Source: a virus
Virus record (IMG/VR): IMGVR_UViG_3300045912_000789
Location: 64,001-128,000 of that record
Strand: one strand, 5' to 3'
DNA length: 64,000 nucleotides
Under the pieces are notes generated by a model. The model searched no databases. It was not told the origin of the DNA and saw nothing but the letters and a program-made list of their open reading frames with translations. Position numbers and translations under genes: made by a program. Every line of letters starts with the position of its first letter. The first letter of the stretch is position 1. Below are positions 33,092 to 58,387 of the stretch, in pieces.

Positions 33092-33102
33092 TGTGGTACC
33101 AT
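33092..33102 (+). promoter_or_regulatory. extended -10 element TGTG-G-TACCAT
   Basis: 7 nt before ATG 33110. Confidence 0.4.
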
Positions 33103-33109
33103 GACCGCC

Positions 33110-42445: not shown

Positions 42446-42471
42446 TCGGCCAGATCCCCGTGGAGACCCTC

Positions 42472-43293
42472 ATGACCAGCCACGACACCTCCCCGTTCAT
42501 CGGGCGGTCCGTCGATCCCCAGAGCCTGGAGGCGATGGGGAAGCAGGCTGCCCGTGCCGCCGAGACGGCCGGGATCAGCATGACCGACGCCGTCGTCCAG
42601 ACGATCGGCCACGTCAAGCTGAACTCCGAGCAGGTCCGGCGCGTGGTCGAGTACGCCAACATCGAGATGTTCAACCGCAAGTTCGCGGCGATGTCGGGGT
42701 ACGTCCGCGCGGTCCACATCGACGGCGGTCCGGCGGACCCCGTCCAGGTCATGCAGAACCTCAACGATGCGGCTCGGCCGCGGGAGGTGATCGTGGACTC
42801 CATGGAGTACTCGATGCCGCCGGATCTCGTGAAGTCGTCGGGTGCGATGCACTTCGACTTCGTCCCGGAGCGCACGCGCGCCGGGGCGCTGGGCGAGGTG
42901 TACGCGCTCCAGTCGAAGCTCTCGTCAGCTCACGACGAGCTGGTGCAGAACTTCGAGGCCTCGAAGGAGCGCCTCTCGGAGGCCTTCACGCGCCTGATCG
43001 ATCAGGTGAAGTCGGCCTCCGCCGGCGGAGCAACCCCGGAGGAGATCTACGCGGCCTGGCACCGGGTCCACCCGGAGCTGGCGAAGATCGCCTACGACAA
43101 GCTCAAGGTCGCGATGCGCTCCGACAACGAGAAGGTCGCGGGTCGGATGATCAACCCGGACGCGAAGGTCGTCTCGATCTTCCGCGACTTCGTCAAGGAG
43201 TCGCTGAGCACCGAGGCGCACACCCACGCTCTGCGGAACGTCGAGGCCGAGCTGAGCAAGGTCTCGTCGTGGCTGCGGAAGCACGGAGGCTGA
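42472..43293 (+). CDS. putative head-associated protein (273 aa)
   Basis: GGAG RBS; KQAA, KSAS, KIAY and KVAG sites. Confidence 0.7.
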   Translation: MTSHDTSPFIGRSVDPQSLEAMGKQAARAAETAGISMTDAVVQTIGHVKLNSEQVRRVVEYANIEMFNRKFAAMSGYVRAVHIDGGPADPVQVMQNLNDAARPREVIVDSMEYSMPPDLVKSSGAMHFDFVPERTRAGALGEVYALQSKLSSAHDELVQNFEASKERLSEAFTRLIDQVKSASAGGATPEEIYAAWHRVHPELAKIAYDKLKVAMRSDNEKVAGRMINPDAKVVSIFRDFVKESLSTEAHTHALRNVEAELSKVSSWLRKHGG

Positions 43294-43294
43294 T

Positions 43295-43576
43295 GTGACG
43301 TACCGAGCAACCTCGAACGCGATCCAGCTCCTCAAGACCGCCTCGGCCCTCCAGACGGGTGAGCGGGCGGCGAAGGCTCTGAAGGGCCTCGTCGTCGGCG
43401 GCACCAACCTGGGTGCCGGGGTGGCCAAGGGACTCGATCTCCCCGAGAACGTCGGCCGGGCGGCGGCCATCGCCGGGATGGGCGGGGCCGCCTACGTCGG
43501 CGGCAAGCGCGTCAAGCGCAAGGCAGACGAGCTGAAGTTCCGGCTCATGTACGGCGACCCGGCCCAGTACTACTGA
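43295..43576 (+). CDS. small glycine-zipper protein with LLKTAS leader
   Basis: VGRAAAIAGMGGAAYVGG segment. Confidence 0.7.
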   Translation: MTYRATSNAIQLLKTASALQTGERAAKALKGLVVGGTNLGAGVAKGLDLPENVGRAAAIAGMGGAAYVGGKRVKRKADELKFRLMYGDPAQYY

Positions 43577-43585
43577 GGAGCGATC

Positions 43586-44326
43586 ATGGCAGCCAAGTAC
43601 GCATCGGGCAGCAGCACGTTCGGCAAGCTCCTCTCGGACCCGCACTTCTGGGCGCCGGCCGTCGCGATGGGAGCCGGAGTCGCGGTGACCGGCGCGGCCG
43701 GGGCCGTCCAGAAGCTCGTCGACGCCAGGCAGCAGGCGCGGTCGTTCAAGGAGATGCTGGAGCTGCATCCGCAGCTCAAGACCCGGGATCAGGCGTTCGT
43801 GAAGCGCATCTACACGAGCCTCCACAACGTCAACCCGATGATGGCCCGCGACCCGATGGTCGCCGGAGCCTGGACCGACACGATCATCGAGAGCGGCGGG
43901 CTCGATCAGGGCGCCGCCGCTCGTGCGCTCCTCGAAGGCGTGAAGGACTTGGCGCAGATCCGGTCCTCGATCTCGCAGGCGAAGCAGCGCGAGACCAGCG
44001 CCCCGAAGGCCATCGGCGCCGGCGTCAGCCGGATGGTCGAGCACGGCTTCGCGCGAGGGAAGGAGCTGGAGCGCGAGCACGGCGATCTCGCCGCGGCCCA
44101 CAAGCAGATCAAGGACATCCAGGAGGCGGGCATCCAGGAGCGGGCCCACCGACGAATCGAGGGCCTGACCCGCGCCTACACCGACGCCGCCAGCCGCATG
44201 GAGAAGCTGGTGCAGGGCGGGCACGTGACGCCGCAGCGCGTCGACCAGCTCATGGGCGCCGTGATCAAGAAGCACAGTTCCGCGACGACTCCCGGACAGA
44301 AGCTCATCGCGGCCTGCCGAGGCTGA
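43586..44326 (+). CDS. hypothetical protein with N-terminal hydrophobic Gly/Ala segment
   Basis: GAGGAG RBS; KYAS near the N-terminus. Confidence 0.7.
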   Translation: MAAKYASGSSTFGKLLSDPHFWAPAVAMGAGVAVTGAAGAVQKLVDARQQARSFKEMLELHPQLKTRDQAFVKRIYTSLHNVNPMMARDPMVAGAWTDTIIESGGLDQGAAARALLEGVKDLAQIRSSISQAKQRETSAPKAIGAGVSRMVEHGFARGKELEREHGDLAAAHKQIKDIQEAGIQERAHRRIEGLTRAYTDAASRMEKLVQGGHVTPQRVDQLMGAVIKKHSSATTPGQKLIAACRG

Positions 44327-46107
44327 TGCACACGAAGCGCGCATACTTCGCCGGGGAGCACGACGGAGAACCCCTCGTCCAGATCGTGCGCCCCGGCGAG
44401 CAGGTCAAGACGGCGTCCTTCATGATGCCGTCCGTGCAGTCGTTCATCGATCGGCTGACACCAGATCCCCGCTACACGTACGTCCTCGTCAACGCGATGG
44501 GGTACAGCGAGTTCTACGGCTCGAACTCCAACCGCGACTGGTACGGCCACAACCAGCACCTCGACTTCAACGGGCTGCTGCACTCGCCGCCGGACTTCGG
44601 CAAGGACTACGAGACCGACAAGATGCAGGGCCTGGCGTGGCCCTACGGCTTCCCCAGCTACTACGGCGCGACCGTCTACGCCCACCACAAGAACACCGAT
44701 CCGCAGCAGCTCGGGTTCGGAGACGTGATCTACGTCGCCCCGAATCCGATCATGAAGCGCATCGAGCTGGTCGAGCGCGTGTTCAACGAGGAGGCCCAGA
44801 AGAAGGGGCACACCTCGATCCTGGAACGAATCGCCGCCGGAGAGCGGGTCGACGTCTCGATGGGCTGCAAGGTGCCCTTCGACTTCTGTTCGATCTGCAC
44901 CGACTGGGCACTCGTCAAGAAGGCCTGGAAGACCTTCAATCCCGACGAGCATCGCCACCCCGGCATCGCGATCCTGCACTTCCACAAGACGGTCCAGCCC
45001 ATCCGGGGGCTCGCGATTACCCGCAAGGACTACTGCGAGCACATGCTCCAGATCCCCGGGAAGATCCTACCCGACGGCCGCAAGGTCTTCGTCTACAACG
45101 ACTTCCCCCGCTTCTTCGACATCAGCTTCGTGCTCGTCGGTGCAGATCGCACTGCGCGTGTGATGTGGCACCTCGGGTCGACGAAGCCGACGGAGGGGAC
45201 GACGGCGGGTCCGTGGGCCAAGCGCGAGAACAGTATCGTGCGGCTGCTGGAGAACCTCCTCAACAAGACATCGGCGATCAACATCGCCTCGATGGAGAAG
45301 GAGATCCCCGACGGTTTCGCCCAAGCGGTGAAGCACGACAGCGACACCGCGCCCGACATCAGCGGGACCCTGACGGTGGTCCTGGACGGAGCCGAGGACC
45401 GGAAGCTGATGGCGAAGAAGATCCTCACGGCGCTCGCCGTGTTGGGCATCGTGCCGTCCCCGAGGGAGTTCCAGACCCTCGCCCTCACCCACGTGCCGGG
45501 CGGTGACCTGATCAAGAAGGCGCTCGACGAGAAGGGGGTGGTCTTCGACACCTCGGTCGGCGGGATCGACGACACCTTCAGCGTCAGCGAGAAGCTCTAC
45601 GACGCCAAGCTCACGCAGGCGTTCGCCCCGCTGATGTCCGAGCGGTCGAGCTTCGACCCCTTCCTGACCGAGCGCCTGACCAGCTTCGAGCCGAAGACGG
45701 CGTCCGCACCTGCGATGCCGATCCGCACGGAACTCCTCGACAAGCTGGCGTCCCAGTACAACGGCTACCGGATCTCTACGCTGGAGAACGCCGGGGATCT
45801 CTTCCCGAAGAGCGCCGAGTTCCTGGGTGCCCAGACGGTCGCCAAGATGGGCGGGAAGGGGATCGGCCTGGCCGCTCTTCTCCTCGGTCTGGGGCCCGTG
45901 ATATCTTTGCTTTCGTCGCACCTGCGTAGCAGGCGTGAAGAAGGGCAGCAGATCGGTACCATGGCTTCGTTCGTCGCCGACAATCCGAGCTTCGTGACCA
46001 TCACGACGATCGGCGCCGGTCTGCGAGCCGCCATGGCCATCGACAAGGCCGGAGGCCTGGTCCAAGCTGCGCGCTCTGTCGTCACGGCTGCACGAGGGGT
46101 GCTCTGA
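44326..46107 (+). CDS. prohead (capsid maturation) protease, SMG-type with Zn finger
   Basis: YAHHKN (His), DVSMGCKV (Ser), CSIC...YCEH, FFDISFVLVGAD; upstream of scaffold and capsid genes. Confidence 0.75.
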   Translation: MHTKRAYFAGEHDGEPLVQIVRPGEQVKTASFMMPSVQSFIDRLTPDPRYTYVLVNAMGYSEFYGSNSNRDWYGHNQHLDFNGLLHSPPDFGKDYETDKMQGLAWPYGFPSYYGATVYAHHKNTDPQQLGFGDVIYVAPNPIMKRIELVERVFNEEAQKKGHTSILERIAAGERVDVSMGCKVPFDFCSICTDWALVKKAWKTFNPDEHRHPGIAILHFHKTVQPIRGLAITRKDYCEHMLQIPGKILPDGRKVFVYNDFPRFFDISFVLVGADRTARVMWHLGSTKPTEGTTAGPWAKRENSIVRLLENLLNKTSAINIASMEKEIPDGFAQAVKHDSDTAPDISGTLTVVLDGAEDRKLMAKKILTALAVLGIVPSPREFQTLALTHVPGGDLIKKALDEKGVVFDTSVGGIDDTFSVSEKLYDAKLTQAFAPLMSERSSFDPFLTERLTSFEPKTASAPAMPIRTELLDKLASQYNGYRISTLENAGDLFPKSAEFLGAQTVAKMGGKGIGLAALLLGLGPVISLLSSHLRSRREEGQQIGTMASFVADNPSFVTITTIGAGLRAAMAIDKAGGLVQAARSVVTAARGVL

Positions 46108-46169
46108 TCCGCTGAGGTAGCTCCGGGCAACCGATGACGCAGGATCCCCGCCAAGAAGGAAGACACACC

Positions 46170-47258
46170 ATGGATCGCGAAACCGACATCTTCGACCTGG
46201 ACGTCCAGGGAACCTCCTCGGGCGACCTGGACGTCGATCTCGCCAACGCGGGCCACGTCCTCCAGAAGCTCGCCGAGGAGGAGGGCGTCGATCTGAACGC
46301 CCTCTCGGACGCGGACGTGGCGGACCTCGTCAGGGATCTTCTCCGCCCCGAGGGTCCGAACGCACAGACCACCCAGGAGACCCGGAAGGAAGCCAGCGCC
46401 ATGAGCACCGAGACCCAGCCCCTCCCCAACGAGCCGACCTACGCCGACGTGGCGGTCGAGCTGAGCAAGATCGCCGCCGCCGAGGGCATCGATCTCTCGA
46501 AGGTCTCCCGCGAGGAGTACCACGAGGCGTTCGCCAGCCTCGCCGAGCAGATGGCCGACCCCGAGTACGGCCAGGCGAAGGAGGCCGAGGAGGCGAAGCT
46601 CGCCGAGGCCTACGCGCAGGGCCAGCGCATGGCCGACGGCTTCCTCGATCGCCTCAAGGAGGCGGAGGACGAGGCCGAGAAGAAGGAGAAGGAGCGCAAG
46701 GAGAAGGAGGGCGAGGAGGGCAAGAAGGAGGCCGCCGGCGCCGTCCGTGCCGCGCTCCACGGCGCGAAGGACAAGGCGAAGAAGATGCTCGGCAAGGGCG
46801 TCGGGCACGCCGTCCGCGCGGGCGAGAAGGTCCGCGGCGCCGCGTCCTCGGCCGCCAAGGGCGAGCGCGAGTTCCACGAGCGCCTCGGCAAGGGCATGCC
46901 CGAGGGCCTGACCCACGCCGTCGCGAAGCGCATGGAGGGCCCCGCGAAGGATCGCCTCAGCCGTGCGCGCACCGCGGTCGGTCGCGGTGCCACGGCGGCC
47001 GGCGCGGCCGGTGCCGCGGGCGCGGCGGGCGCGGGCTACGCGGCGGGGCGCTCGAAGGAGAGCCTCGACGAGGCGGCGCTCCAGATCGCGGCCGAGATGG
47101 TCCGCGAGATGGGCTTCGATCCCTCCACCGGCGAGAAGCTCGCCGAGGCGCACGTCCCGGCCGAGCCCACCGCCGACGCGGACGGCTGGACCGAGGACGA
47201 GATCGCCGAGCGCGCGGTCGAGTTCATGAAGGAGGCGGGCTACCTCGCCCAGGAGTGA
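46170..47258 (+). CDS. scaffold/core-like polyprotein with KxA sites and glycine-zipper module
   Basis: Acidic helical repeats (KLAEEEGVDL / KIAAAEGIDL); KEAS, KEAA, KLAE. Confidence 0.65.
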   Translation: MDRETDIFDLDVQGTSSGDLDVDLANAGHVLQKLAEEEGVDLNALSDADVADLVRDLLRPEGPNAQTTQETRKEASAMSTETQPLPNEPTYADVAVELSKIAAAEGIDLSKVSREEYHEAFASLAEQMADPEYGQAKEAEEAKLAEAYAQGQRMADGFLDRLKEAEDEAEKKEKERKEKEGEEGKKEAAGAVRAALHGAKDKAKKMLGKGVGHAVRAGEKVRGAASSAAKGEREFHERLGKGMPEGLTHAVAKRMEGPAKDRLSRARTAVGRGATAAGAAGAAGAAGAGYAAGRSKESLDEAALQIAAEMVREMGFDPSTGEKLAEAHVPAEPTADADGWTEDEIAERAVEFMKEAGYLAQE

Positions 47259-47473
47259 TCGTGCGGCGCGAAGCTCATCCCGTCCTGATGCTGGAAACCT
47301 GGCTCAAGGAAGCCCAGGCAGCCCAGCGTCCGGCCGGGATGAGCGACGTCCGGCGGCGGACGCCGGTCGGGAAGGACCGCCAGGAGTACGCGCAGCCCAA
47401 CCCGCCCGCAGCCACCACTGCCCCCCACACGATCTCCAACCAGAAGGCTCTCAGCCCACCACCCGTGATGTGA
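47255..47473 (+). CDS. small hypothetical protein (WLKEA motif)
   Basis: GTGA overlap; alternative ATG at 47288. Confidence 0.5.
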   Translation: MIVRREAHPVLMLETWLKEAQAAQRPAGMSDVRRRTPVGKDRQEYAQPNPPAATTAPHTISNQKALSPPPVM

Positions 47474-47480
47474 GGAAACC

Positions 47481-48650
47481 ATGACGACCCTCGCCGACAT
47501 CGTGAACAACGCGCTCTCCCAGTCGGAGAGCAGCCTCAAGCTCGCTTCGGCCCGTGACGCGGCGCCGGCCGTCGAGGGAAGCTCGCTGGCCTTCCTCGAC
47601 GCGGAGCTGGCCCTGCCGACCTCGACGCCGAAGCTCGCCTCGGACGACGAGGACGAGGACGATCGCCGTCCTCCGAAGAAGGACGAGAAGAAGGAGCCGG
47701 AGAAGAAGGCGTCCGTCCACGAGATCGTGGAAGACGCCGACTACGCGATGAAGCTCGCGGAGGCCCTGACGCTCGGCTCGAACATCGTCGCCGCGAAGCT
47801 CGCGTCCGACGGCACCGCGCTCGGCGCTCCCGGACCGCAGGTCCACCAGAGCGGGATGCAGCACGCCCCCACGATCCCGAAGGCGCACTCGAAGGTCAAG
47901 GAGACGATCTCGGGTCCGGCGACCAACGCCGGCCCGAACGGCCTGCCGACCTCGAAGGCGGACTTCACGTCGCCCAACGACCAGTCGGGCCGCGCGAAGA
48001 ACCACCCCGGCAAGACCGCCGCCGACGAGGCGTGGACGAAGTCGAAGACGGCCTCGATCCGCCTCATGCGCGCGAAGACGGCGCAGGCCGAGACGCTCAT
48101 CGAGCTGGGCCAGATCGCGGCGGCCGAGAAGCTGCTCGACGAGGTCCGGGCCGAGCAGGCGAAGCTCGCGCAGGACCCCTCCTCGCCCCCGCCGGTCATG
48201 CCGGCCCACAGCGAGTCGTTCAAGCTCGACACCGAGCCCGGCCCGTCCACGCACATCGGCGACAACGCCGCGCTGATCTCGCTGACGAAGAGCGAGGCGC
48301 GCGACAAGACCACGCGCGAGGCCTCGCAGTACATCAGCGAGCCGCCCAAGAAGGACAACGCGGTCGGCGCGCACATGCTGCGGACCGACGGTCAGAAGCT
48401 GAGCCACCTCGTGCTCCCCGGCGCGCGCAAGACCGCGTCGGCGCAGCCCGCGACGGCCCCGGCTCCCACGACCCCCACCACCGAGAAGAAGGCGTCGATG
48501 GACCCCGCGGTCGGCCGCGCCTACCTCTCGAAGCTCGTCAAGACCGCCGGCGATCCCGAGGCGATGCCCCAGGAGCGCGCGAAGGCCGCCGAGGCCATCA
48601 AGGCGATCAAGGCCAAGATCGGGGTGGACCCCGAGGCTCTCCTGAGCTGA
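47481..48650 (+). CDS. scaffold-like low-complexity protein, KxA-rich
   Basis: About 13 KxA sites in 389 aa; GAGG RBS. Confidence 0.7.
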   Translation: MTTLADIVNNALSQSESSLKLASARDAAPAVEGSSLAFLDAELALPTSTPKLASDDEDEDDRRPPKKDEKKEPEKKASVHEIVEDADYAMKLAEALTLGSNIVAAKLASDGTALGAPGPQVHQSGMQHAPTIPKAHSKVKETISGPATNAGPNGLPTSKADFTSPNDQSGRAKNHPGKTAADEAWTKSKTASIRLMRAKTAQAETLIELGQIAAAEKLLDEVRAEQAKLAQDPSSPPPVMPAHSESFKLDTEPGPSTHIGDNAALISLTKSEARDKTTREASQYISEPPKKDNAVGAHMLRTDGQKLSHLVLPGARKTASAQPATAPAPTTPTTEKKASMDPAVGRAYLSKLVKTAGDPEAMPQERAKAAEAIKAIKAKIGVDPEALLS

Positions 48651-48675
48651 ACTTCCCGGAAGGAGACAGACGAAC

Positions 48676-49080
48676 ATGAACAACATGGAGAAGGTGGCGC
48701 ACGAGGTGCCCGGCATCATGCAGGCGGCCTCGCAGCACCTCGTCAAGCTCGCCGGGAAGAACGTCGAGCTGGTGAAGCGAGCGGAGGCCGCGGAGCACGA
48801 GAACCGCGTCATGAAGCTCGCACGTCGGATGGAGATCCGCGGGCTGCACACGAACCTGTCCTTCGAGGACAAGATCGCGCAGCTCATGGAGGTCCCTCTC
48901 GACAAGCTCGCGACGATGGAGCAGGCGGTCGAGATGGCCGCCGGCGGCGTGCGGCTCGGGAAGGTCGCGGAGACCGACTCGGGCAGCAAGATCGCGTCGT
49001 CCGGCTACGAGCCGTCCGGGGGTTCCTCGGACGTCGACGAGCTGGAGGTCTTCATCGAGAGTCAGGCGGCTCTCACCTGA
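48676..49080 (+). CDS. scaffold-like coiled-coil protein
   Basis: 8 KxA sites in 134 aa; AAGGAG RBS. Confidence 0.7.
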   Translation: MNNMEKVAHEVPGIMQAASQHLVKLAGKNVELVKRAEAAEHENRVMKLARRMEIRGLHTNLSFEDKIAQLMEVPLDKLATMEQAVEMAAGGVRLGKVAETDSGSKIASSGYEPSGGSSDVDELEVFIESQAALT

Positions 49081-49130
49081 GCCGGGATGACCTGAACAGC
49101 AGAGAGACCGTCAACAAGGAGATCTGAATC

Positions 49131-49613
49131 ATGGCCAGCTACGATCGCAAGTTCGAGGTCATCCAGCCCACCCTGGACCGCCTCGTCCGCAAGCCCCTGG
49201 AGGTCGCCGACGTGCGCCTCCTCGACCCGACCGGCGCCGGTGGAGCGGTGGTCGCCCTCATCGCCGGCGAGCTGGTCCAGCTCGACTCCACCTACAAGTG
49301 GATCCGGGCCGCGACCTTCACGCAGCCGTCGTTCTTCTCGGTCGAAGACCGGGGCGACTACGGCGTCCAGGCGTCGCGCAAGCTCAGCGCGATCATGGGC
49401 GGCGGCGCCTTCGAGTGCGACACCATCGTCTACAACACCGGGCTGACCACGGTCGGCGCGGCGGTGCAGGCAGGCGTCGTCAACAACAGCCTCTCGGGCA
49501 GCGTCAACCGCGCCGGCCTCGTCGCCAGCGCCGGCGGCGTCGTCCTCGGCTACGTCACGCGCGTGGCGGCCCTGAACAACGGCCTCCTCCGCATCCTCCA
49601 GACCCTGGTCTGA
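49131..49613 (+). CDS. capsid decoration/cement protein (putative)
   Basis: 160 aa, beta-rich, immediately before the major capsid gene; strong RBS. Confidence 0.55.
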   Translation: MASYDRKFEVIQPTLDRLVRKPLEVADVRLLDPTGAGGAVVALIAGELVQLDSTYKWIRAATFTQPSFFSVEDRGDYGVQASRKLSAIMGGGAFECDTIVYNTGLTTVGAAVQAGVVNNSLSGSVNRAGLVASAGGVVLGYVTRVAALNNGLLRILQTLV

Positions 49614-49666
49614 TCCCCCTCATCGGACGCAGACCCTCAACGAGATCCACGAAGGAGAACCAGACC

Positions 49667-50782
49667 ATGGCCAGCCACAAGGAGATGCTCCTCAACCAGC
49701 TCTCCGACCCCGCCGCGAAGACCAAGATCGCAGCGAAGTTCGGAGGCTACATCCGCGACCGCCTGCGCGAGTCGTCGTTCGCCGAGCAGGTGCTCCCGCC
49801 GGAGAACGTCGACCGCTCGCAGTGCCAGGTCTCGACCCAGCACGACTCGCTCGTGAAGATCGAGTACCTGGAGCCGCGCTCGCGCGCGATGACGGTGACG
49901 TTCCGCGGCGAGCCCCGCGCGAACTTCATCCGCGGCGAGAAGGTCGAGGTGCCGTTCATCACCGTGATGAGCGACATGTTCCAGAAGCCGGAGCAGGAGT
50001 TCCTCGCGTACGCCTTCCCGATCGGGAAGGTGATCGAGCAGAACGCCGTGCGCGACCTCGGCGAGGTGCAGGACCGCGAGTTCCTCATCCACATCGAGGC
50101 CGCCATCCAGGCGCTCCAGACCGAGGCGAACGGCGGCACCCCGACGGCGCTCAACGCGACTACGGTCGGCGCCGGCTCGGTCGTCGAGTTCTCGGCGACG
50201 AAGGGCGAGCTGGCGCGCATCGCGGCCAGCAACACGGCGGTCTCGCTGCCGATCCAGCGGCCGGACATCATCCGGCTCATCAAGCTGCTCGACGGCAACC
50301 GCCTGGAGAGCAACCTCATCCTGATCACGACGGTCGACTGGGACGACATCCTGGCGTGGACCGTCGAGGACCAGGGCGACAAGCTCCAGTCCGAGACGGC
50401 GGTGCAGGGGTGGAAGTACAACCTCCTCCTCGGCAAGCGCTACGTCCGGACGATCAAGACGGACATCCTCCGTCCCGGCAACGTGTACTGCTTCACGAGC
50501 TCGGACTTCCTCGGGAAGTTCTACGTGCTCAACAACGTGAAGTTCTACATCGACAAGTACATCAACATGCTGAAGTTCGTCGCCTGGAAGGACATCGGCA
50601 TGTCGATCATCAACATCGCGTCGGTCCGCAAGCTGGAGCTGTACTCCGGCGACGCGAACCCGACGACGAACGCGGACGGCATCCTCGGCTCGGTCACCCC
50701 GGTGGCGGAGGAGGATCTCGGCCGGCCGAACAACCGGGCGGGCAACCGCCAGTTCTTCCCGCAGGTGGTCAGCATCGGCTGA
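49667..50782 (+). CDS. major capsid protein (putative, HK97 fold)
   Basis: 371 aa, AAGGAG RBS, very strong codon bias; follows protease/scaffold; followed by a hairpin. Confidence 0.75.
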   Translation: MASHKEMLLNQLSDPAAKTKIAAKFGGYIRDRLRESSFAEQVLPPENVDRSQCQVSTQHDSLVKIEYLEPRSRAMTVTFRGEPRANFIRGEKVEVPFITVMSDMFQKPEQEFLAYAFPIGKVIEQNAVRDLGEVQDREFLIHIEAAIQALQTEANGGTPTALNATTVGAGSVVEFSATKGELARIAASNTAVSLPIQRPDIIRLIKLLDGNRLESNLILITTVDWDDILAWTVEDQGDKLQSETAVQGWKYNLLLGKRYVRTIKTDILRPGNVYCFTSSDFLGKFYVLNNVKFYIDKYINMLKFVAWKDIGMSIINIASVRKLELYSGDANPTTNADGILGSVTPVAEEDLGRPNNRAGNRQFFPQVVSIG

Positions 50783-50819
50783 TCGCCCCGCGGAAGGCTC
50801 CCGACTGGACCCAGCCACC

Positions 50820-50850
50820 GGAGGGGCATCGGCACTGCCGGTGCCCCTTC
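50820..50850 (+). terminator. hairpin downstream of the major capsid gene
   Basis: gaggggcatcggc-act-gccggtgccccttc. Confidence 0.55.
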
Positions 50851-50872
50851 TGTGCATCAAGGAGATCGAACC

Positions 50873-51718
50873 ATGGACAGCTCGCAGAACACGCTCCCCC
50901 GGCAGCTCCACCTCCTCGGGGCCGGCCATCACCCGTCCACCAAGACCGTGCGCCGGTCGCATCGCTTCGCCGAGAAGTCGTTCCTGATCGGCTCGCTGCC
51001 GATCCGGCCGAACCGGCGGGTTCCGGTGACCGTCGAGTTCATCGTCGGCCATCTCGACGAGATCATCGACCGCGTGAAGCGCGGGACGCTGCTCGTGCAG
51101 CACTCCGCCGACACGTTCGTCGATCCCGACGAGCTGCGCGCCATCGCGGCCGTCTACCGCGGCGAGACGCCGCCCGGGCCCATCGTGAAGCTCGCGCCGG
51201 ACGACGAGCCGGACGACGACGTCATCGACAACCCCGAGGACGACGGCAACCACGAGGACCCCTCGCAGGTCGAGGAGCCCACGGACGAGCCGGCGGCCGA
51301 GGAGCCCAACCCCGCCGAGGAGGCGTTCGGCGAGGACGCTCCCGAGGCCCAGGAGCCCGCCGAGGAGCCCATGGACGCCCCGGAGGCCCCGGAGGAGCCC
51401 ACGGAGTCCTACGACGCCCCGGAGGCCGACTACGACGCCCCCGGGGACCTCCACGAGCCCGAGCCGGCCATGGAGGGCATGGACGAGCCCGACATGGGCG
51501 GGGAGGCGCTGGAGGCCGCCCCGAAGCTCGCCGAGGAGGCTCCCGTCGACGAGGCCGTCGAGCCCGCCGTCGAGCAGCGCTGGCTGCCCGAGGGCTTCGA
51601 GAAGCTCGGCAAGAAGAAGCTGCTCGCGCTCTGCAAGGAGCGCGACATCACGGTGGAGGGCTCGCGGGTCGACGCCGACCAGCTCGTCCGCCTCCTCACC
51701 TCCTGGAAGAACGGCTGA
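50873..51718 (+). CDS. hypothetical protein with acidic E/P/D repeat linker and C-terminal helix-extension-helix-like motif
   Basis: EEP.DAPEA repeats; KKKLLALCKERDI. Confidence 0.7.
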   Translation: MDSSQNTLPRQLHLLGAGHHPSTKTVRRSHRFAEKSFLIGSLPIRPNRRVPVTVEFIVGHLDEIIDRVKRGTLLVQHSADTFVDPDELRAIAAVYRGETPPGPIVKLAPDDEPDDDVIDNPEDDGNHEDPSQVEEPTDEPAAEEPNPAEEAFGEDAPEAQEPAEEPMDAPEAPEEPTESYDAPEADYDAPGDLHEPEPAMEGMDEPDMGGEALEAAPKLAEEAPVDEAVEPAVEQRWLPEGFEKLGKKKLLALCKERDITVEGSRVDADQLVRLLTSWKNG

Positions 51719-51736
51719 TCACGTCGAGGGTGAAGG

Positions 51737-52249
51737 ATGGCTTCCCAGCTACAGGGTCTTGGTCAGCCGGCGAACATGCAGACGCTGGAGGCTCACATCC
51801 AGAGCGTCCGGTTGTTCATGCGTGACTTCGCCCAGCTCAACCTGCTGATCCGTGGCGAGGAGTCGTCCGACAGGATGATCGCGTGGGCGACCATGGACTT
51901 CCTGTCGAACTTCAACGGCACCCCGCCGTTCAGCACCTTCAACCTCGACGATCTCCTCTTCTCGTACAACCTCCAGCACTTCGCGGTGCGCGGGACCGTG
52001 ATCTCGCTCCTCCAGAGCCTGATGATGATCTACGCGCGCAACCACCTGCCCTTCTCGGATGGTGGCCTGAGCGTGAACTTCAACGACAAGGCGCCCCTCA
52101 TCCAGTCGATGCTCCAGCTCTTCCAGGCCGCGTACGAGCAGGACAAGCGCCAGATCAAGACGGCCATCAACGTCGCTGGTATCATGGACGCCGGCCCGAG
52201 TGGCGTGCACAGCGACTACTACGCCCTGAGTGCGATCGGATTCTACTGA
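51737..52249 (+). CDS. head-tail adaptor (putative)
   Basis: Helical 170 aa with FSDGGLSVN hairpin; position after the capsid gene. Confidence 0.5.
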   Translation: MASQLQGLGQPANMQTLEAHIQSVRLFMRDFAQLNLLIRGEESSDRMIAWATMDFLSNFNGTPPFSTFNLDDLLFSYNLQHFAVRGTVISLLQSLMMIYARNHLPFSDGGLSVNFNDKAPLIQSMLQLFQAAYEQDKRQIKTAINVAGIMDAGPSGVHSDYYALSAIGFY

Positions 52250-52258
52250 GGAGGCAGC

Positions 52259-52738
52259 ATGGCCTACGAAGTCTGCGTCGGAGACAAGTACCGGATCGAG
52301 GATCGCCTCAACGGCGGCGCGCGCCTCGGGCCGTTCCCCAGCAGCGGGCTGCCCATCGGCGGCCTGACCCTGATCTTCGCCGTCCCCGCGGTGACGGTGA
52401 CCTTCACCGGTGCGCTCGGGGAGGTGCGGACCTGGGCCCAGATCCTCGCCGACCTGGTCGCCCAGGCTCCGACGGTGACGTCGAAGACGCGTCCGGCGAA
52501 CAACGGCCCAGCGGGCTCGGGCAGCGCTCCCGGAGTCGTCCCGAGCAACCAGGTCGAGCTGAGGCTCTACCTGGACACCGGCATCACCATCGACAAGGAC
52601 GGCACGGCCAACACGCTGCTGCGGATCCCCACGGCCGCCGACACCGTCTACCCCGTCGCCGTCGCGCAGACCAAGATCGTGGGCTTCACCCAGGGCCTGG
52701 CGCCGACCGCGTACGCCGTCCTCATCAACCTGAGCTGA
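52259..52738 (+). CDS. virion structural protein (hypothetical)
   Basis: GAGGAGG RBS; beta-rich. Confidence 0.6.
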   Translation: MAYEVCVGDKYRIEDRLNGGARLGPFPSSGLPIGGLTLIFAVPAVTVTFTGALGEVRTWAQILADLVAQAPTVTSKTRPANNGPAGSGSAPGVVPSNQVELRLYLDTGITIDKDGTANTLLRIPTAADTVYPVAVAQTKIVGFTQGLAPTAYAVLINLS

Positions 52739-52751
52739 ACAAGGACTGGTC

Positions 52752-54506
52752 ATGAGCCACTACGCAGAACTGGACCAGGAGATCGTCGCTCTCGGAAACG
52801 GGGCGACTTCGGGCATCTCGCGCGCCGACGCGACGGTGTTCGTCCACGCGCTGCGCAAGCTCGCCGCGCAGGGCGCGCCGGCACCGGATGCCGACCTCGC
52901 CGAGCACGCGACCGAGGTCGCGATGGGCGAGGAGGCTTCGCCCGCCGAGGCCGCGATGCACACGCAGGCCGGGGTGCCGGACGAGAGCGGCCACCTCGAA
53001 GGCGAGTTCGCCGTCCCGCTCGACCAGGTCGTCATGACCCTCGCGCAGATCGTCTCGAACAGCATGCGGCAGCACACCGCGTACTCGTTCTACGGCGAGA
53101 TGATGCGAGATCTCGGGCGCGGCGAGCTGGCCGAGCTGTTCGACGAGCAGGGCAAGGACGAGATGAAGGAGATGAAGTACTTCCTTCGTCGGATGTCCGT
53201 GCTCCACCCGGGCGGCGTGCCGATCCCGGTGGCGCCGACGCCGGAGCCCAGCGCCGACGTCTCGGTCGCACTGCGCTACCTCATCGCCGGCGAGCAGCAG
53301 GCGATCGTCCTGTTCAAGACGCTGCACTCGATGCTCGGGGACAACCCGATGAAGTACACCATCGAGCAGACGATGACAGACGCCCAGGAGCACCTCGATC
53401 GTCTCTGGCAGTACATGCCGGCGACCGAGGCTCCGAAGCAGGCCGGCGCCAAGATCGCGAGCGTCATCACGCGCATGAAGCTCGCGGCGCGCACCGGGGC
53501 AGAGACCGCGCTCGGTCAGGCACTCCAGCAGGGCGTCGAGAAGCCCACGGCGAGCAAGCAGGCGTCGCCCCAGTGGCCCTCGCCGAGCCCCGGGGCGATC
53601 CCCGTGGGGCAGCCCGGCACTGAGCCGCTCAGCACGGTCATCGGTCGCGAGGCGCTGCTCCAGCAGGCGCAGCTCATGAACGAGAACCAGGACCTGCGTG
53701 CGCGCATGGACCAGGCCGCTCAGCAGCAGCTCATGGCGCAGCAGCAGCTCGAAAGCCTCGGCGCGGAGAACGAGAACCTCCAGATGCAGGCCATGCAGGC
53801 CAGCGATCAGGCGCAGATGGCGACCGAGCAGGCGCAGCTCTCCAGCGAGCAGGCGGCGGCGCAGGCGGACGCGAAGATGCGGCTCGCGATCCGCGTGCAG
53901 CAGCTCCGCCAGAACCTCGCCGACATCGTCTCGGCCGACCCCGTCCAGGAGGAGGGTGTCGGCTTCGGCGAGCAGGCCGGCCCCGGCAGCGTCGCGACGT
54001 CGTCGCAGCAGAACCAGATGGCCCAGCAGGCCGCCGCCATGGACCCCACCGGCGGCACCGGCGGAGCCCCCACCCAGGAGGCCGCCGAGGAACAGCAGCA
54101 GGCCGCCAACGCGCAGCAGGAGGCTCAGCAGCAGACCGCCCAGGCCCAGCAGAAGACCAAGGCGGACAGCTCGAAGCCGAAGGGCAAGGGCGGCACGACG
54201 GTCTCCGTGAAGACCTCGGGCATGCCCTCGCTCGTCAAGAAGCCGCTCGTCGAGGCGGGTCACGCGATCGGCGAGGGCATCGGGCAGCACCTCGAACAGG
54301 CCGGCAGCGACGCCATGCGCGGCGGGCTGAAGACGCTCAAGGAGCGCGTCCGCGCCTACGGCAAGGACCCGAAGGTCGTCGGCGGGGCTGCGCTCGCCGC
54401 CGGCGGCTACGTCGGCGCGAAGGCGCACGGCATCAAGAAGCAGCACGAGCGCGACCGAACCCAGAAGGACATCCTGAAGGCCGTCCAGTCGATGGCGAAC
54501 CGCTGA
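52752..54506 (+). CDS. polyprotein: ferritin-like four-helix domain + Q-rich coiled coil + glycine-zipper module
   Basis: ELAELFDEQGKDEMKE...EQQAIVLF...AQEHLDRL; KLAA, KIAS, KQAS and KTSG separators. Confidence 0.65.
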   Translation: MSHYAELDQEIVALGNGATSGISRADATVFVHALRKLAAQGAPAPDADLAEHATEVAMGEEASPAEAAMHTQAGVPDESGHLEGEFAVPLDQVVMTLAQIVSNSMRQHTAYSFYGEMMRDLGRGELAELFDEQGKDEMKEMKYFLRRMSVLHPGGVPIPVAPTPEPSADVSVALRYLIAGEQQAIVLFKTLHSMLGDNPMKYTIEQTMTDAQEHLDRLWQYMPATEAPKQAGAKIASVITRMKLAARTGAETALGQALQQGVEKPTASKQASPQWPSPSPGAIPVGQPGTEPLSTVIGREALLQQAQLMNENQDLRARMDQAAQQQLMAQQQLESLGAENENLQMQAMQASDQAQMATEQAQLSSEQAAAQADAKMRLAIRVQQLRQNLADIVSADPVQEEGVGFGEQAGPGSVATSSQQNQMAQQAAAMDPTGGTGGAPTQEAAEEQQQAANAQQEAQQQTAQAQQKTKADSSKPKGKGGTTVSVKTSGMPSLVKKPLVEAGHAIGEGIGQHLEQAGSDAMRGGLKTLKERVRAYGKDPKVVGGAALAAGGYVGAKAHGIKKQHERDRTQKDILKAVQSMANR

Positions 54507-54517
54507 AGGAGACGATC

Positions 54518-56329
54518 ATGAGCCACGTCAACGATCTGGAGGACTTCGTCAACGATCTCTCCGCCCCGGTGAAGATCGCGGAGACGGACCTCGACAACCT
54601 CAGCCTCCCCGAGCTGGAGGCCCTCATGGGTCTCGATCTCACGGAGGACAACGAGAAGGTCGCGTACCTCAACGCCTGCGTGAAGAGCGCGTACGGCGAC
54701 GACCGGTACGGGTCCTGGCTCGATCAGTTCGCCGGCTCGCCGCTGCACGCGAAGGCCCTCCAGCTCTGCGAGGAGGAGCTGGGTCTGGAGCAGGAGCGGC
54801 TCCAGCGTCGGATCGAGCGGCAGGAGCAGAACCAGGGCGACGACGACATCTGGACGCGGCAGGACATGCTGCGACTCCAGAAGGACATGCTCATGCTGGA
54901 GCTGCACAAGTCGAAGGCCGGTCCCGGAGGCGGCAAGGACCCGACGATGCAGCCCCAGGCCGGCGCGGGGCCCGCGGCCGAGGCGCCCCCGAAGCCGGGC
55001 AAGACCACCCCGCCCAAGGAGGGCAAGACCGCCTCGGACGTCCAGACGGTCGGCCAGATCAACAACGGAGACCCGGCCCAGCCGTCGTGGCCTCGCGCCT
55101 CGCTCGGCGTGGACGCGGCGGGTCGGCGGGCGACCCCCGAGGAGGAAGCCGCCCAGGGGCGCGCCGACACCCACGTGCAGCACCGTGATCCCGTCACGAA
55201 GTCGGCGGGCGCGGCGACGCAGCTCGGCGAGGCCGTGATGAAGCGCATCGATCGCGCGCCGGGCGCCGTCCAGCGCGGGGTCGGGATGCTCCACAACGTC
55301 GGCGCTCGGCTGGGCGCGAAGTCCACCGAGAGCGCGGTCGGGCGCGGCATCATGGCGGCCGGCGGGGCTGCGGCGGGAGCAGGTGCGCTCGGTGCCGGGG
55401 CACTCGCCTCGCGCAAGAAGGAGTCCAGCGATCTCACAACTTCGGAGCGCGAGGACCTCAAGAAGAAGCAGTTCGCGCTGCCGGAGAAGAGGAAGTACCC
55501 GATCCCCGACGAGGCCCATGCCCGCAACGCGCTCGCTCGCGCGGCACAGTTCGCTTCGCCCGAGGAGCAGAAGCGCATCCGGGCGGCCGTCGATCGGAAG
55601 TTCCCCGGCATCCAGCTCACCAGCGCCAGCAAGCCGGCGAAGCCCACGGTCGGTCTGCACCACGTGCCCGACAGCAAGAAGGAGTCCTCGCTCCTCGCGG
55701 CCGTGGGGGGCCACCGCGGCCTCCCTTTCGGCGATGAGGGCAAGATCGCGAGCGTCATGAGCACGCTCGCGATGGATGCCGGGTCGCAGGCGAAGCACCT
55801 CGCGCGCATGGGGTCCTACGCCCGCAACGTGCAGAAGGTCCCGCACGCCGTGGTCGCCGCTCGCAACGCGGAGATGCGTGCGTTCACCCCGAAGGCGCTC
55901 CCGACGGCCGCCGCGGCAGCCACCCACACCCCGCCCCCGGTCGCAGTGACGGTGGCCAAGAAGAAGACCCCCACGCAGGCGATCGACCCGATGGCGCTGT
56001 CGCGTCATCTCGCCCAGACCAACCCCCAGCAGGCCATCCAGGCCGGGCGGCAGTTCGGGGCGCCGGTGGTCGGCAACGCGGCGGTGCTCGATCAGCTCTC
56101 GCAGATGAGTTTCGGCAAGCTCAGCGTGAGCAAGAGCTGGATCACTCGCGTCATCCGGCGGGCGAAGGCCACCAAGCTGCGGGTTCGGGACTCCGCTCAG
56201 AAGCATGAGGCAGCGTGGTGGGATCACCGCGTGAAGGGGACCGAACTCACGGACGCGGCCAAGAAGCGCGGCTTGGCTGCTGACGAGCTAGCCGACAAGT
56301 TCAAGAGCATGAAGGGAGCCATGAGCTGA
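54518..56329 (+). CDS. polyprotein with DUF6582-like domain and glycine-zipper module
   Basis: QFALPEKRKYPIPDEAHARNALAR; KIAE, KVAY, KSAY, KTAS, KSAG, KESS and KIAS separators. Confidence 0.65.
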   Translation: MSHVNDLEDFVNDLSAPVKIAETDLDNLSLPELEALMGLDLTEDNEKVAYLNACVKSAYGDDRYGSWLDQFAGSPLHAKALQLCEEELGLEQERLQRRIERQEQNQGDDDIWTRQDMLRLQKDMLMLELHKSKAGPGGGKDPTMQPQAGAGPAAEAPPKPGKTTPPKEGKTASDVQTVGQINNGDPAQPSWPRASLGVDAAGRRATPEEEAAQGRADTHVQHRDPVTKSAGAATQLGEAVMKRIDRAPGAVQRGVGMLHNVGARLGAKSTESAVGRGIMAAGGAAAGAGALGAGALASRKKESSDLTTSEREDLKKKQFALPEKRKYPIPDEAHARNALARAAQFASPEEQKRIRAAVDRKFPGIQLTSASKPAKPTVGLHHVPDSKKESSLLAAVGGHRGLPFGDEGKIASVMSTLAMDAGSQAKHLARMGSYARNVQKVPHAVVAARNAEMRAFTPKALPTAAAAATHTPPPVAVTVAKKKTPTQAIDPMALSRHLAQTNPQQAIQAGRQFGAPVVGNAAVLDQLSQMSFGKLSVSKSWITRVIRRAKATKLRVRDSAQKHEAAWWDHRVKGTELTDAAKKRGLAADELADKFKSMKGAMS

Positions 56330-57240
56330 TGCTGCCCATCGAACGGCTCCGGGTGCGAAGCCTGGACGTGGACTCGAACGAGGTCACGTGGGGGATCGCA
56401 GGATCTTCCATGGAGGACGCGCTCGACTACACGTTCCAGGTCTTCCGCTCGGAGTCGCCCGAGGGCCCGTTCGAGCCGATCACGCAGACGTTCGAGGACC
56501 GCTACATCTTCGTCGACCGGCGTCTCCCCGCCGGCGACAAGTTCCGCCAGATCTGGTACCGGCTGCGCGTCACGAAGAAGGGTGGCCAGACGCCGGTCTT
56601 CGAGGACTTCGGCCCGGTCTGCCGACAGGCCGAGCCCGATCTCGTCGCGAACTACATCCGCCGCATGGAGCTGACGCTGTTCACGCAGGCGACGGCGCGG
56701 CTCTGCTGGCTGTTCAAGCGGCGGACGTTCGGAGCCCGCTGCCCGTCGTGCTGGGATCCGGTGAGCGGCAAGAAGGCTCGGGCGAACTGCCTGACCTGCT
56801 ACCAGACCGGCTTCCTCCGAGGCTACCTCAACCCCATCGAGGTCTGGATCCAGATCGATCCGGCCGCGAAGGCCCAGCAGAACCAGGGCCAGCAGGCCGC
56901 TCAGCACACCGCGACCACCGCCCGAACGTCGTTCTACCCGAACATCGTGCCGGGCGACGTGATCGTCGAGGCCGAGAACAAGCGCTGGCGCGTCGACAAG
57001 GTCACCCAGTCGGAGCGCCTTCGTACCCCGATCAAGCAGGAGCTGGTGCTCCTTCAGATCAACGACACCGACATCGAGTACAAGCTCCCGATCAACCTGG
57101 ACGAGGCGCTGCGCGACATCCAGCCGTCGCCGCCTCGGATGTTCACGAACCCCACGGACATCCAGTCGTCGATCGACGAGCGTACCCCCGACGTCTTCGC
57201 GAACTACCGCACGTACCCGCGCGGTCCCCTGGAGGAGTGA
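56329..57240 (+). CDS. neck/head-closure protein (putative) with Zn finger
   Basis: FN3-like N-terminus; RCPSCWD...CLTCYQTGFLRGY; PGDVIVE. Confidence 0.5.
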   Translation: MLPIERLRVRSLDVDSNEVTWGIAGSSMEDALDYTFQVFRSESPEGPFEPITQTFEDRYIFVDRRLPAGDKFRQIWYRLRVTKKGGQTPVFEDFGPVCRQAEPDLVANYIRRMELTLFTQATARLCWLFKRRTFGARCPSCWDPVSGKKARANCLTCYQTGFLRGYLNPIEVWIQIDPAAKAQQNQGQQAAQHTATTARTSFYPNIVPGDVIVEAENKRWRVDKVTQSERLRTPIKQELVLLQINDTDIEYKLPINLDEALRDIQPSPPRMFTNPTDIQSSIDERTPDVFANYRTYPRGPLEE

Positions 57241-57830
57241 TGCGATCCGAAGCACCGAGCGAGAAGAGCTACCACCGCGCCATCCACCGGCGCGACGTCG
57301 CCGAGGGCGCGGCCAAGGGCGGGCTCGTCGGGGCGGTCGCCGGGGCCGGCCTGAAGCGCCTGGGCCACAAGGCGGGCCCGCTCGCCGGCGCGGCCCTGGG
57401 AACCCTCGTGGGCGGGGGAGCTGGGCATCTGAAGGGCAGGGAGCGTACGCTTCGGGACACGACCACCCAGGAGCGTCAGCACATGCGCACCGAAGCACGA
57501 ACGAAGAAGAGCAGCGTCGAGGACGCCTTCATGCAGGGCTTCGAGGACGGGATGGCGAAGGAGGCCGTCCTGCCCGCGCTCGCGGCGGTCGGTGCACGCG
57601 TCGCGCCCATGCTCGCGCGGGCGACGCCGATGCTGGCGAACCTCGGGCGCTCGCTCGTGGGCGGCGGCATGCGTGCGGCGAACGCCGTGGGCATGGGCCA
57701 GATGGCGACCGATCTCGTCCGCAAGGGCGTCCGCTCGTCGCCGAACTTCATGCGCAACGCCGGCATCGCCGGCATCGGTGCGGGCGCGGCCGGGCTCGCC
57801 GGCGCCGGGTACATGGCAGGACGAAGCTGA
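57240..57830 (+). CDS. two-module glycine-zipper protein with internal AFMQGFEDGMAKEA leader
   Basis: TGATG coupling; GxxxG segments. Confidence 0.7.
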   Translation: MRSEAPSEKSYHRAIHRRDVAEGAAKGGLVGAVAGAGLKRLGHKAGPLAGAALGTLVGGGAGHLKGRERTLRDTTTQERQHMRTEARTKKSSVEDAFMQGFEDGMAKEAVLPALAAVGARVAPMLARATPMLANLGRSLVGGGMRAANAVGMGQMATDLVRKGVRSSPNFMRNAGIAGIGAGAAGLAGAGYMAGRS

Positions 57831-58387
57831 TGGATCCGGTCTTCGACACGTTCGGGGAGAAGGTCGCGGCGCTCACCCCCATGGTGCGCCCCGGCCTCCT
57901 CGAACGTTCGCAGTTCAAGCTGATGCGGACCCGGGCGCCGAGCGCGCCCCGGGCTCCGATGCCCGGCACCTTCGGGATCTCGACGAAGACCGCCGTCGGG
58001 GTCGACGACATCAGCACTGTCGTCCACGAGGATCCACTGCCCTCGACGCACAAGGGCCTCGCTCGGAAGAAGACGGCCATGGTCCACCCGTCGATGCAGG
58101 CGCCGTCCGAGACGATGACCCGCGAGAAGTGGAAGCAGACGTTCAAGGACGTCCCGATCTCCATCCTCGCCGGCGGCGTGGGCTACGGCATCGGCCGGAC
58201 GCTCGCCGAGGTGATCGGCGAGAAGACCGTCGGCAAGATCATGGTCGAGGGTGGTGGCACGCTGAACGCCACGATGCGACCTGGGTGGGTGAAGGCCATG
58301 CCGTTCGTGACGGCAGCCCTCACTGCCGGCGGCGCGTACGCCGGCAGCCGGCTCCGCGAGGGGCTGAAGAAGCGGAGGGAGGGGTGA
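57830..58387 (+). CDS. protein with MDPVFDTFGEKVA leader and two hydrophobic segments
   Basis: TGATG coupling; KVAA, KTAV, KTAM. Confidence 0.7.
   Translation: MDPVFDTFGEKVAALTPMVRPGLLERSQFKLMRTRAPSAPRAPMPGTFGISTKTAVGVDDISTVVHEDPLPSTHKGLARKKTAMVHPSMQAPSETMTREKWKQTFKDVPISILAGGVGYGIGRTLAEVIGEKTVGKIMVEGGGTLNATMRPGWVKAMPFVTAALTAGGAYAGSRLREGLKKRREG

Follow-up and report, generated by a model that had tools for sequence, protein, structure and literature searches.

The question raised by the head genes of the IMG/VR virus record IMGVR_UViG_3300045912_000789 is whether a short motif built on lysine and alanine, which recurs in the encoded proteins, serves as a code for their proteolytic maturation. 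The window analysed here comprises 64,000 nucleotides (bases 64001–128000 of a single 171,909-bp contig, about 66% GC), in which a plus-strand block (42460–58387) forms the head-morphogenesis module and is followed by the genes for a tail sheath of 1034 amino acids (aa) and the tube. To our knowledge, motif-coded proteolytic maturation is known for T4, phiKZ, 201phi2-1 and SPN3US, and always with Glu before the cut. A first-pass annotation of the window had noticed K-x-[AS] recurring densely around an SMG-type protease and had proposed it as a processing site of head polyproteins. Our analysis suggests that a stricter form, K-x-A-[SAG], is probably what the phage's own prohead protease (44326–46107) recognizes and cuts, and by analogy the system is likely to represent maturation cleavage of the T4/phiKZ style with a Lys/Ala specificity in place of Glu.

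Genes were called with a codon-usage model trained on long unambiguous open reading frames (ORFs) and are named here by the position of their first base in the window. The head module begins with 42460, 43295, 43586, the protease gene 44326, 46170, 47481, 48676, 49131 and the major capsid protein (MCP) gene 49667 (Table 1). Two further genes considered below, 14632 and 33101, lie outside the region 42472–58387 that had drawn attention to the motif, inside the window. Pfam and PHROG scans of the head module returned almost no matches, the exceptions being a ferritin-like domain in 52752 and a DUF6582/phrog_16160 module in 54518.

The loose form of the motif, K-x-[AS], was counted in each protein against whole-protein, composition-preserving shuffles, and the outcome was mixed. 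Observed copies exceeded the expected number in 47481 (16 against 9.2), 48676 (8 against 1.8), 14632 (15 against 5.2), 33101 (14 against 6.0) and 42460 (10 against 3.2) and, marginally, in 46170 (11 against 6.3), but stood at chance in 52752 (6 against 6.2), 54518 (11 against 9.9) and the protease itself (8 against 5.4). The dense recurrence reported in the first-pass annotation is therefore real for part of the proteins that it named. Its hand count was exact for 48676 and low for 47481 (about 13). It had also been right that PolA, the sheath and the tube are not enriched, since these controls stand at expectation (6.4, 4.2 and 0.4), although they hold 7, 5 and 1 copies instead of about 3, about 3 and none.

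The strict form gave a stronger signal, which persisted under global as well as local shuffles. Genome-wide, K-x-A-S occurs 37 times against 14 expected. When all gapped patterns with two or three fixed residues were scanned without bias, it came out as the top cysteine-free pattern among those with three; patterns ending in Glu do not rank there, the conserved residues being Lys, Ala and Ser/Ala/Gly. K-x-A-[SAG] occurs 104 times against 63 expected, and the five proteins that are individually significant (p<=0.01), all of them in the window, hold 37 copies against about 6 expected, the remaining proteins of the genome being near chance (67 against 57). When shuffles were confined to blocks of 30 residues as a control for Lys/Ala-rich stretches, nine head and cargo proteins held 49 copies of K-x-A-[SAG] against 11.0 expected and 27 of K-x-A-S against 2.2, and the reversed motif, which has identical composition, remained at chance (9 against 10.8). 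In the window lineage Thr, Leu, Ile or Val is favoured after the Lys, and the residue after the Ala is Ser at 28 of 50 sites, Ala at 15 and Gly at 7. A DNA-level repeat as the source of the motif was rejected because codons differ between sites, and the motif is thus a feature of the proteins. A compositional artefact is ruled out by the local shuffles, the flat reversed motif and the replication of the enrichment at 44–67% GC described below. Two other patterns are enriched genome-wide: C-x-x-C pairs (45 against 7), the strongest pattern of the unbiased scan, point to many small zinc-ribbon proteins, and most T-x-x-N-P copies (21 against 5.4) stem from large tail-fibre-like proteins encoded upstream of the window.

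Selection on the motif can be followed in nine related IMG/VR loci, in which capsid identity is 69–92% and the head-internal proteins have diverged to 30–60%. In alignments of ten head and cargo proteins, the lysines that start K-x-[AS]-[SAG] show 58% identity against 31% for their flanks, compared with 36% against 34% for the other lysines of the same proteins (difference in the excess over flanks, p=2e-6). Motif lysines in the capsid, sheath and other structural controls show no excess conservation, with only seven such lysines in the comparison. The alignments support the view that the motif is under selection in head-internal proteins only. In 47481, sites 20, 51, 75, 106, 317 and 336 hold, by eye, fixed places in otherwise unalignable linkers, and additional copies have been gained or lost inside the same linkers among relatives: positions turn over and the number persists.

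The product of 44326 is a putative prohead protease, a reading that draws on its fold matches, the PHROG matches of its relatives, the annotation of its phage G homologue and the position of inteins beside Ser178. In a fold comparison, the top two of 48,161 PDB folds were varicella-zoster virus (VZV) assemblin and T4 gp21. The sequence of the window protease has no Pfam or PHROG match, hhalign against T4 gp21 gave nothing, searching PDB sequences with a profile of the protease alignment gave nothing relevant, and Pfam found nothing in three cultured homologues. These three, Arash gp222, D181_0277 and phage G gp19, do reach phrog_18299 'head maturation protease' (E 2e-6, 7e-7 and 3e-19, respectively), and gp19 is annotated as a head maturation protease (PMC12484599). 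The window gene stands in the head module upstream of the scaffold-like genes and the major capsid gene. Its family is very large and almost wholly uncultured: a database search returned 966 homologues, mostly on contigs of 150–195 kb. Besides the proposed catalytic serine and its two neighbours (Table 1), H120, H121 and H220 are invariant in an alignment of 32 homologues. Many homologues are 350 residues longer and carry an intein of about 355 aa with Hint and LAGLIDADG Pfam matches (P0002, P0007, P0009 and about 25 others), which in P0007, the one checked, lies exactly between G180 and C181, two residues past Ser178. Inteins favour active sites as insertion places, and an intein in a prohead protease gene looks unusual. 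The catalytic domain also contains a nearly invariant Cys-x-x-Cys...Cys-x-His/Cys cluster (C188, C191, C237 and H239), whose CSIC part is common to Arash gp222, D181_0277 and phage G gp19 and which may be a structural zinc site. We know of no zinc site in T4 gp21 or the assemblins.

Within the protease, the lysine of the first candidate site, K28, is invariant in all 32 homologues and is followed by T, V or L, then by A (28 sequences) or S (4), and then mostly by S (16) or G (14); its equivalents are KQAA in Arash gp222 and KSAA in D181_0277. The N-terminal leader carries the motif in 27 of the 32. The linker at 285–329 ranges in length between about 25 and 90 residues and cannot be aligned across homologues, and K-x-A-[SAG] is nevertheless kept there in 23 of 32; the second linker, of 14 aa, carries the motif in 26. 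The catalytic domain (250 aa) contains it in none of the 32. Such bracketing of the domain together with exclusion from it is what self-processing would predict. In the structural models of the protease and 52752 taken together, low-confidence segments contain 7 of the 9 motif sites where 3 would be expected (P=0.006). Placement at boundaries between modules, claimed generally by the first-pass annotation, is shown only for these two proteins, from the models, and for 54518, from domain matches. A complex prediction of the catalytic domain (32–290) with the first 62 residues of 47481 scored 0.33, 0.02 and 0.01 and, having been run without controls, gives no verdict.

Replication in distant relatives is the strongest argument against a compositional or lineage-specific accident. 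Homologues of the protease were found by tblastn in Salmonella phage Arash (gp222) and Vibrio phages (E 1e-16 to 6e-21) and in Bacillus phage G (gp19, E 2e-8). The proteases of Arash and D181 are about 25% identical to that of the window, as is the Arash capsid, and a Ser-Met-(Gly/Ala)-Cys...CSIC signature is shared, with SMGC in phage G and SMAC in Arash and D181. Head gene order matches in Arash (gp220–gp226) and D181, and phage G gp19 lies between the portal gp14 and the MCP gp27. In Arash (53% GC), K-x-A-[SAG] is enriched in gp220 (7 against 0.9), gp223 (6 against 0.95), gp225 (5 against 0.53) and the protease gp222 (3 against 0.7), and not in the helicase, the tail proteins or the 2548-aa gp229. 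In D181 (44% GC), the 269-residue product of gene 0278, which follows the protease gene, has 10 copies against 0.89 and the protease 5 against 0.75. In each of the three lineages examined (67%, 53% and 44% GC), the motif thus accompanies this protease type. Arash and D181 add Leu or Met two residues before the Lys at 43 of 52 sites (background 24%), giving G-[LM]-[EV]-K-x-A-[SAG]; the window lineage lacks this preference (14 of 52), and the common core is K-x-A followed by a small residue. In the published virion proteome of Arash (PMC10585845, Table 2), the 'coverage' values cannot be residue coverage (for example 100% with 2 unique peptides) and speak neither for nor against cleavage. Its list of 116 'structural' proteins includes ribonucleotide reductases, so that the preparation probably contained non-virion protein.

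The capsid protein bears a single copy near its N-terminus at the same aligned place in the three lineages (KIAA in the window, KEAG in Arash and D181), about 10 residues before a conserved R..LRE helix or N-arm. This copy had been seen in the first-pass annotation. The longest ORF at that place (49822–51825, 667 aa) was rejected as the capsid gene: it is a wrong-frame artefact, rich in Arg, Gly and Pro as is typical of high-GC DNA, and the real genes beneath it are that of the MCP and one for a very acidic protein of 281 aa (50873–51718). Extension of the code to phage G is tentative. Its protease gp19 has 4 copies against 0.5 expected, flanking the catalytic domain (p=0.002), and its portal 3 against 0.5, near the ends (p=0.013); its capsid gp27 has none.

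If the motif is the cleavage site of this protease, maturation might proceed as follows. By analogy with T4 gp21 and phiKZ gp175, the protease would be co-assembled into the procapsid with scaffold-like and internal proteins and would cut at the motif once the procapsid has been assembled. It would free its own catalytic domain by cutting its three linkers, and about 22 N-terminal residues would be removed from the capsid protein. The motif-dense 47481, 48676 and perhaps 46170 would be chopped into small peptides that can leave, and the modules of the larger internal proteins 52752, 54518, 14632 and 33101 would be trimmed or separated. The cut bond is most likely K-x-A↓S, in preference to K↓x-A-S, because the Ala is near-invariant, only small residues follow it and assemblin cuts between Ala and Ser. 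The specified positions are i, i+2 and i+3, joined by i-2 in Arash and D181. In an extended strand every second side chain faces the enzyme, a geometry that suits K-x-A↓S as well as [LM]-x-K↓x, which is the T4 pattern with Lys replacing Glu.

The proposal that the motif is a prohead protease site, already made in the first-pass annotation, draws its strength from the enrichment of the motif and the selection on it, the bracketing of the protease's catalytic domain, the capsid site, the co-occurrence with the protease and the protease's probable identity. The Lys/Ala chemistry differs, as that annotation said, from the Glu-ending motifs of T4 and phiKZ; its claim that the sites are much denser than in those phages found no support. 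Several points weigh against the proposal. What was observed is the statistics, conservation and placement of the motif and its co-occurrence with the protease, and from these we infer protease activity, cleavage and the cut bond. KLAS473 of the protease sits inside a modelled helix (469–487) and need not be a cut site, and KLAA36 of 52752 also lies inside a predicted helix; further copies belong to the E3-binding-like units of 46170, Arash gp223 and D181_0278, so that cleavage cannot occur at all of them. By count, enrichment is only marginal in 46170 and the motif is near chance in 54518, and internal duplication inflates the counts in repeat proteins. Furthermore, the presumed scaffold proteins gp20 and gp21 of phage G have no motif copy.

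A bolder form of the cleavage reading is possible, though we consider it rather doubtful, in which the motif is a modular cut code with a Lys-gated, herpesvirus-like Ala↓Ser specificity that both removes scaffolds and releases functional modules inside the head. The released modules would be the ferritin/Dps-like bundle, the DUF6582 units and glycine-zipper segments, and they would be delivered with the DNA and the packaged RNA polymerase. The release of many cargo peptides from polyproteins, as first suggested, agrees with the two models and a few domain matches in a few proteins, and distinct functional cargo peptides were not borne out.

The motif could instead be an uncut short linear motif for docking or targeting, which binds the scaffold, the internal proteins and the protease to the inner capsid, the portal or each other in the manner of a capsid-targeting sequence or an encapsulin cargo peptide. 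Any short linear motif located in a disordered region would be expected to show the same enrichment, conservation and placement in linkers; the multivalent copies of scaffold-like proteins, such as the 10 of D181_0278, could serve avidity, and several copies sit in helices. However, a catalytic domain bracketed on both sides and strictly free of the motif bears the signature of self-processing, and the one conserved copy just ahead of the capsid N-arm matches known propeptide removal, which makes docking alone improbable. In T4, moreover, the targeting sequence and the cut site coincide, so that the two readings are compatible.

Even less probable is a structural by-product, in which a helix start or cap preference, or a repeated unit resembling the E3-binding domain, has been duplicated with no role as an assembly signal. 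Some copies do belong to a repeated fold: 46170 contains units of the form K-[LI]-A-x-x-E-G-[VI]-D-L (KLAEEEG.DL and KIAAAEG.DL), Arash gp223 and D181_0278 contain tandem units of the form EKAAAV...VKEAS, and there is a weak PF02817 match. Most copies, however, lie in non-repetitive, low-confidence linkers with unrelated flanks, where their positions shift while their number is kept; the reversed motif shows no enrichment, and the motif occurs in proteins as unrelated as the protease, the capsid, the ferritin-like protein and the phage G portal. Use of the motif by another enzyme, either a host or a second phage protease, or for lysine modification or cross-linking, is very improbable: the catalytic activity of the 44326–46107 product is putative and host Prp processes the capsid and scaffold proteins of staphylococcal phage 80alpha, but the motif tracks the phage protease family across Salmonella, Vibrio and a high-GC host, marks the protease's own linkers, and no second protease gene was seen in the head module by Pfam and PHROG scans.

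Table 1. Putative prohead protease, its candidate sites and the other motif-bearing head and cargo genes of the window (pLDDT, predicted local distance difference test; counts are observed against expected)
Feature	Coordinates	Strand	Details
Putative prohead (capsid maturation) serine protease	44326–46107	+	593 aa; catalytic domain about residues 32–286; helical domains 328–453 and 461–593
S178-M-G codons, proposed catalytic serine	44857–44865	+	S178, M179 and G180 invariant in 32-sequence alignment
KTAS, candidate N-terminal self-processing site, protease residues 28–31	44407–44418	+	within low-confidence segment 1–31
KTSA, protease residues 314–317, variable linker after catalytic domain	45265–45276	+	pLDDT <50 across 287–327
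KTAS, protease residues 457–460, between second and third domains	45694–45705	+	pLDDT <50 across 454–460
Head-module protein, 277 aa, 4 K-x-A-[SAG] sites	42460–43293	+	N-terminal region related to Arash gp220 and D181_0275 (blastp)
Small protein, 93 aa, KTAS14 and Gly/Ala-rich hydrophobic segment	43295–43576	+	K-(T/E)-A site in 3/3 relatives with the gene
246-aa protein, KYAS at residue 4, KHSS at 229	43586–44326	+	C-terminal K-x-S-[SA] kept where relatives have the region
Acidic scaffold-like protein, 362 aa, two E3-binding-like helical units	46170–47258	+	weak PF02817 match
Motif-densest protein, 389 aa, 9 K-x-A-[SAG] and 7 K-x-A-S	47481–48650	+	9 against 1.7–1.9; 7 against 0.45–0.5
134-aa protein, 8 K-x-[AS] copies including KVAH6 and KIAS105	48676–49080	+	N-terminal, KLAG24 and C-terminal sites in most of eight orthologues
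Major capsid protein, 371 aa, KIAA residues 20–23 (49724–49735)	49667–50782	+	tblastn to annotated Arash MCP
584-aa head protein	52752–54506	+	leader, ferritin-like four-helix bundle 90–220, linker, coiled coil 293–395, basic tail
603-aa head protein, DUF6582/phrog_16160 module 305–365	54518–56329	+	KKESS at 300 and 387 flank module; KTAS170, KIAS409
185-aa protein, KVAA11 and glycine-zipper-like segment	57830–58387	+	not enriched by itself
524-aa poorly structured protein, 9 K-x-A-[SAG], weak DUF6582 lead	14632–16206	+	9 against 1.05; Atlas model mean pLDDT 0.51
694-aa poorly structured protein after spike gene, 10 K-x-A-[SAG]	33101–35185	+	10 against 1.0–1.2; Atlas model mean pLDDT 0.36

Several of the motif-bearing proteins have features of their own. 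In 42460, the strict motif occurs 4 times against 0.5 expected, and KQAA28, KSAS184 and KVAG225 are retained in most of four aligned relatives. KEAS73 of 46170, which stands in a variable linker, is conserved, and relatives add K-x-A-S copies at other positions of that linker. The same protein has, at residues of about 30–60 and 95–125, small helical units that resemble the E3-binding (peripheral-subunit-binding) domain and each start with K-x-A; such units occur as tandem duplicates in the scaffold-like protein of each of the three lineages (46170, Arash gp223 and D181_0278). The product of 47481 is probably a scaffold or internal head protein, and its sites are positionally conserved amid diverged flanks in six orthologues. 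Apart from the start, K36, A38 and A39 are the only columns that do not vary in the N-terminal 75 residues of 52752, and KLAA36 closes the leader; KQAG229, KIAS234, KLAA243 and KQAS269 all fall, in the model, within the low-confidence linker 226–292. The bundle of 52752 (PF00210, E 1.8e-6; pLDDT 80–90) is ferritin/Dps-like and conserved in most relatives in which the region was recovered, being degenerate in one locus (L008); it may be a packaged DNA- or metal-binding module.

DUF6582/phrog_16160 modules of the F-A-L-P ... Y-P-I-P-D type are found in 54518 (305–365) and in 14632 (about residue 296), with K-K-A-S or K-K-E-S-S directly before each. In an Atlas look-up, DUF6582 occurred in a minority (11%) of one structural-neighbour cluster, all members of which have Peptidase_S78. 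Neither tblastn against phages nor the Atlas look-up identified 14632 or 33101 beyond weak DUF6582 leads, and 33101 has no phage database match. Glycine-zipper-like, Gly/Ala-rich hydrophobic segments recur in 43295, 46170, 52752, 54518 and 57830, usually before a basic patch (for example ...AGALGAGALASRKKESS and ...AGAGYAAGRSKES), and Arash gp224 has similar ones; a role as membrane-active or capsid-anchoring parts of ejected proteins is possible. The fused RNA polymerase (25735–31965, 2076 aa) is depleted in loose forms (K-x-[AS] 14 against 25.5; K-x-[AS][AS] 0 against 3.5), a depletion that does not reach significance with the strict motif or once multiple tests are corrected for, and the strict-motif scan lists no significantly depleted protein. 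The depletion is suggestive only, and would fit a packaged protein that needs to escape the protease.

If the cleavage reading is true, Lys-x-Ala-(Ser/Ala/Gly) would be a new specificity among phage prohead proteases, with an Ala-Ser core that resembles the herpesvirus cut site. The mature ends of head proteins would be readable from sequence, as would the distinction between scaffold destined for destruction and cargo to be retained or ejected, and proteins that need to stay intact, such as the fused RNA polymerase depleted in the loose motif, would be flagged. Should the modular code also hold, the ejected proteome could be read from sequence alone. Such a code would be spread over a family with hundreds of metagenomic members, of which Arash (Salmonella), D69, D148 and D181 (Vibrio) and possibly phage G are the cultured ones.

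Among known systems, the prohead protease gp21 of T4 (MEROPS S77) follows an (L/I)-x-Glu rule and cuts gp22, gp23, gp24, gp67, gp68, IPI-III and itself. As in T4, the motif of the window, with its three-residue spacing, saturates scaffold and internal proteins, stands near the capsid N-terminus and marks the protease, and the tail and replication proteins are unmarked. Unlike gp21, the window protease has 593 aa, two extra helical domains and the Cys/His cluster, and shows no detectable sequence or profile similarity to it; the motif is based on Lys and Ala where that of T4 ends in Glu, and cleavage at it is proposed here by analogy. Herpesvirus assemblin (MEROPS S21) cuts (V/L/I)-x-Ala↓Ser at its release and maturation sites. 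In the window, by contrast, Lys and not a hydrophobic residue stands two positions before the Ala, and the sites number dozens, spread over many proteins, where assemblin has two in a single precursor.

The proteases phiKZ gp175 and SPN3US gp245 recognize an (S/A/G)-x-Glu motif, and the phiKZ-type protease cleaves itself and removes N-terminal propeptides, which contain several motif copies (PMC10052503, PMC5694885). The motif-bracketed protease of the window parallels this self-cleavage, and these are likewise large phages that package many internal proteins including an RNA polymerase. However, other residues occupy the specified positions, the sites of the window are often internal or C-terminal where cuts in SPN3US give mostly N-terminal propeptides, and the window lineage (Arash-like, 172 kb) is unrelated to phiKZ and SPN3US. 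Nearer at hand, the homologues Arash gp222 (PMC10585845), those of the Vibrio phages D69, D148 and D181, and phage G gp19 come with motif enrichment in neighbouring head genes, and a cleavage motif is unmentioned in the papers or records on these phages. Processing of packaged multi-module proteins by peptidases, assemblin-like or other, has already been put forward for polyvalent proteins (Iyer et al., 2017; PMC5512222). In that case the peptidase belongs to the polyvalent protein as one of its domains and the modules are mostly enzymes for phage-host conflict, whereas in the window the protease is a separate gene and the modules are few (ferritin-like and DUF6582), with no enzyme domain recognised among them and with 14632 and 33101 mostly unmodelled. 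A check for prior description, which the first-pass annotation had advised, found no account of a Lys-x-Ala prohead cleavage motif in the literature searched, whose coverage was incomplete. The locus would therefore belong to a known kind of system, a motif-coded maturation protease that acts on scaffold, capsid, internal proteins and itself, with recognition residues that are, as far as we found, new.

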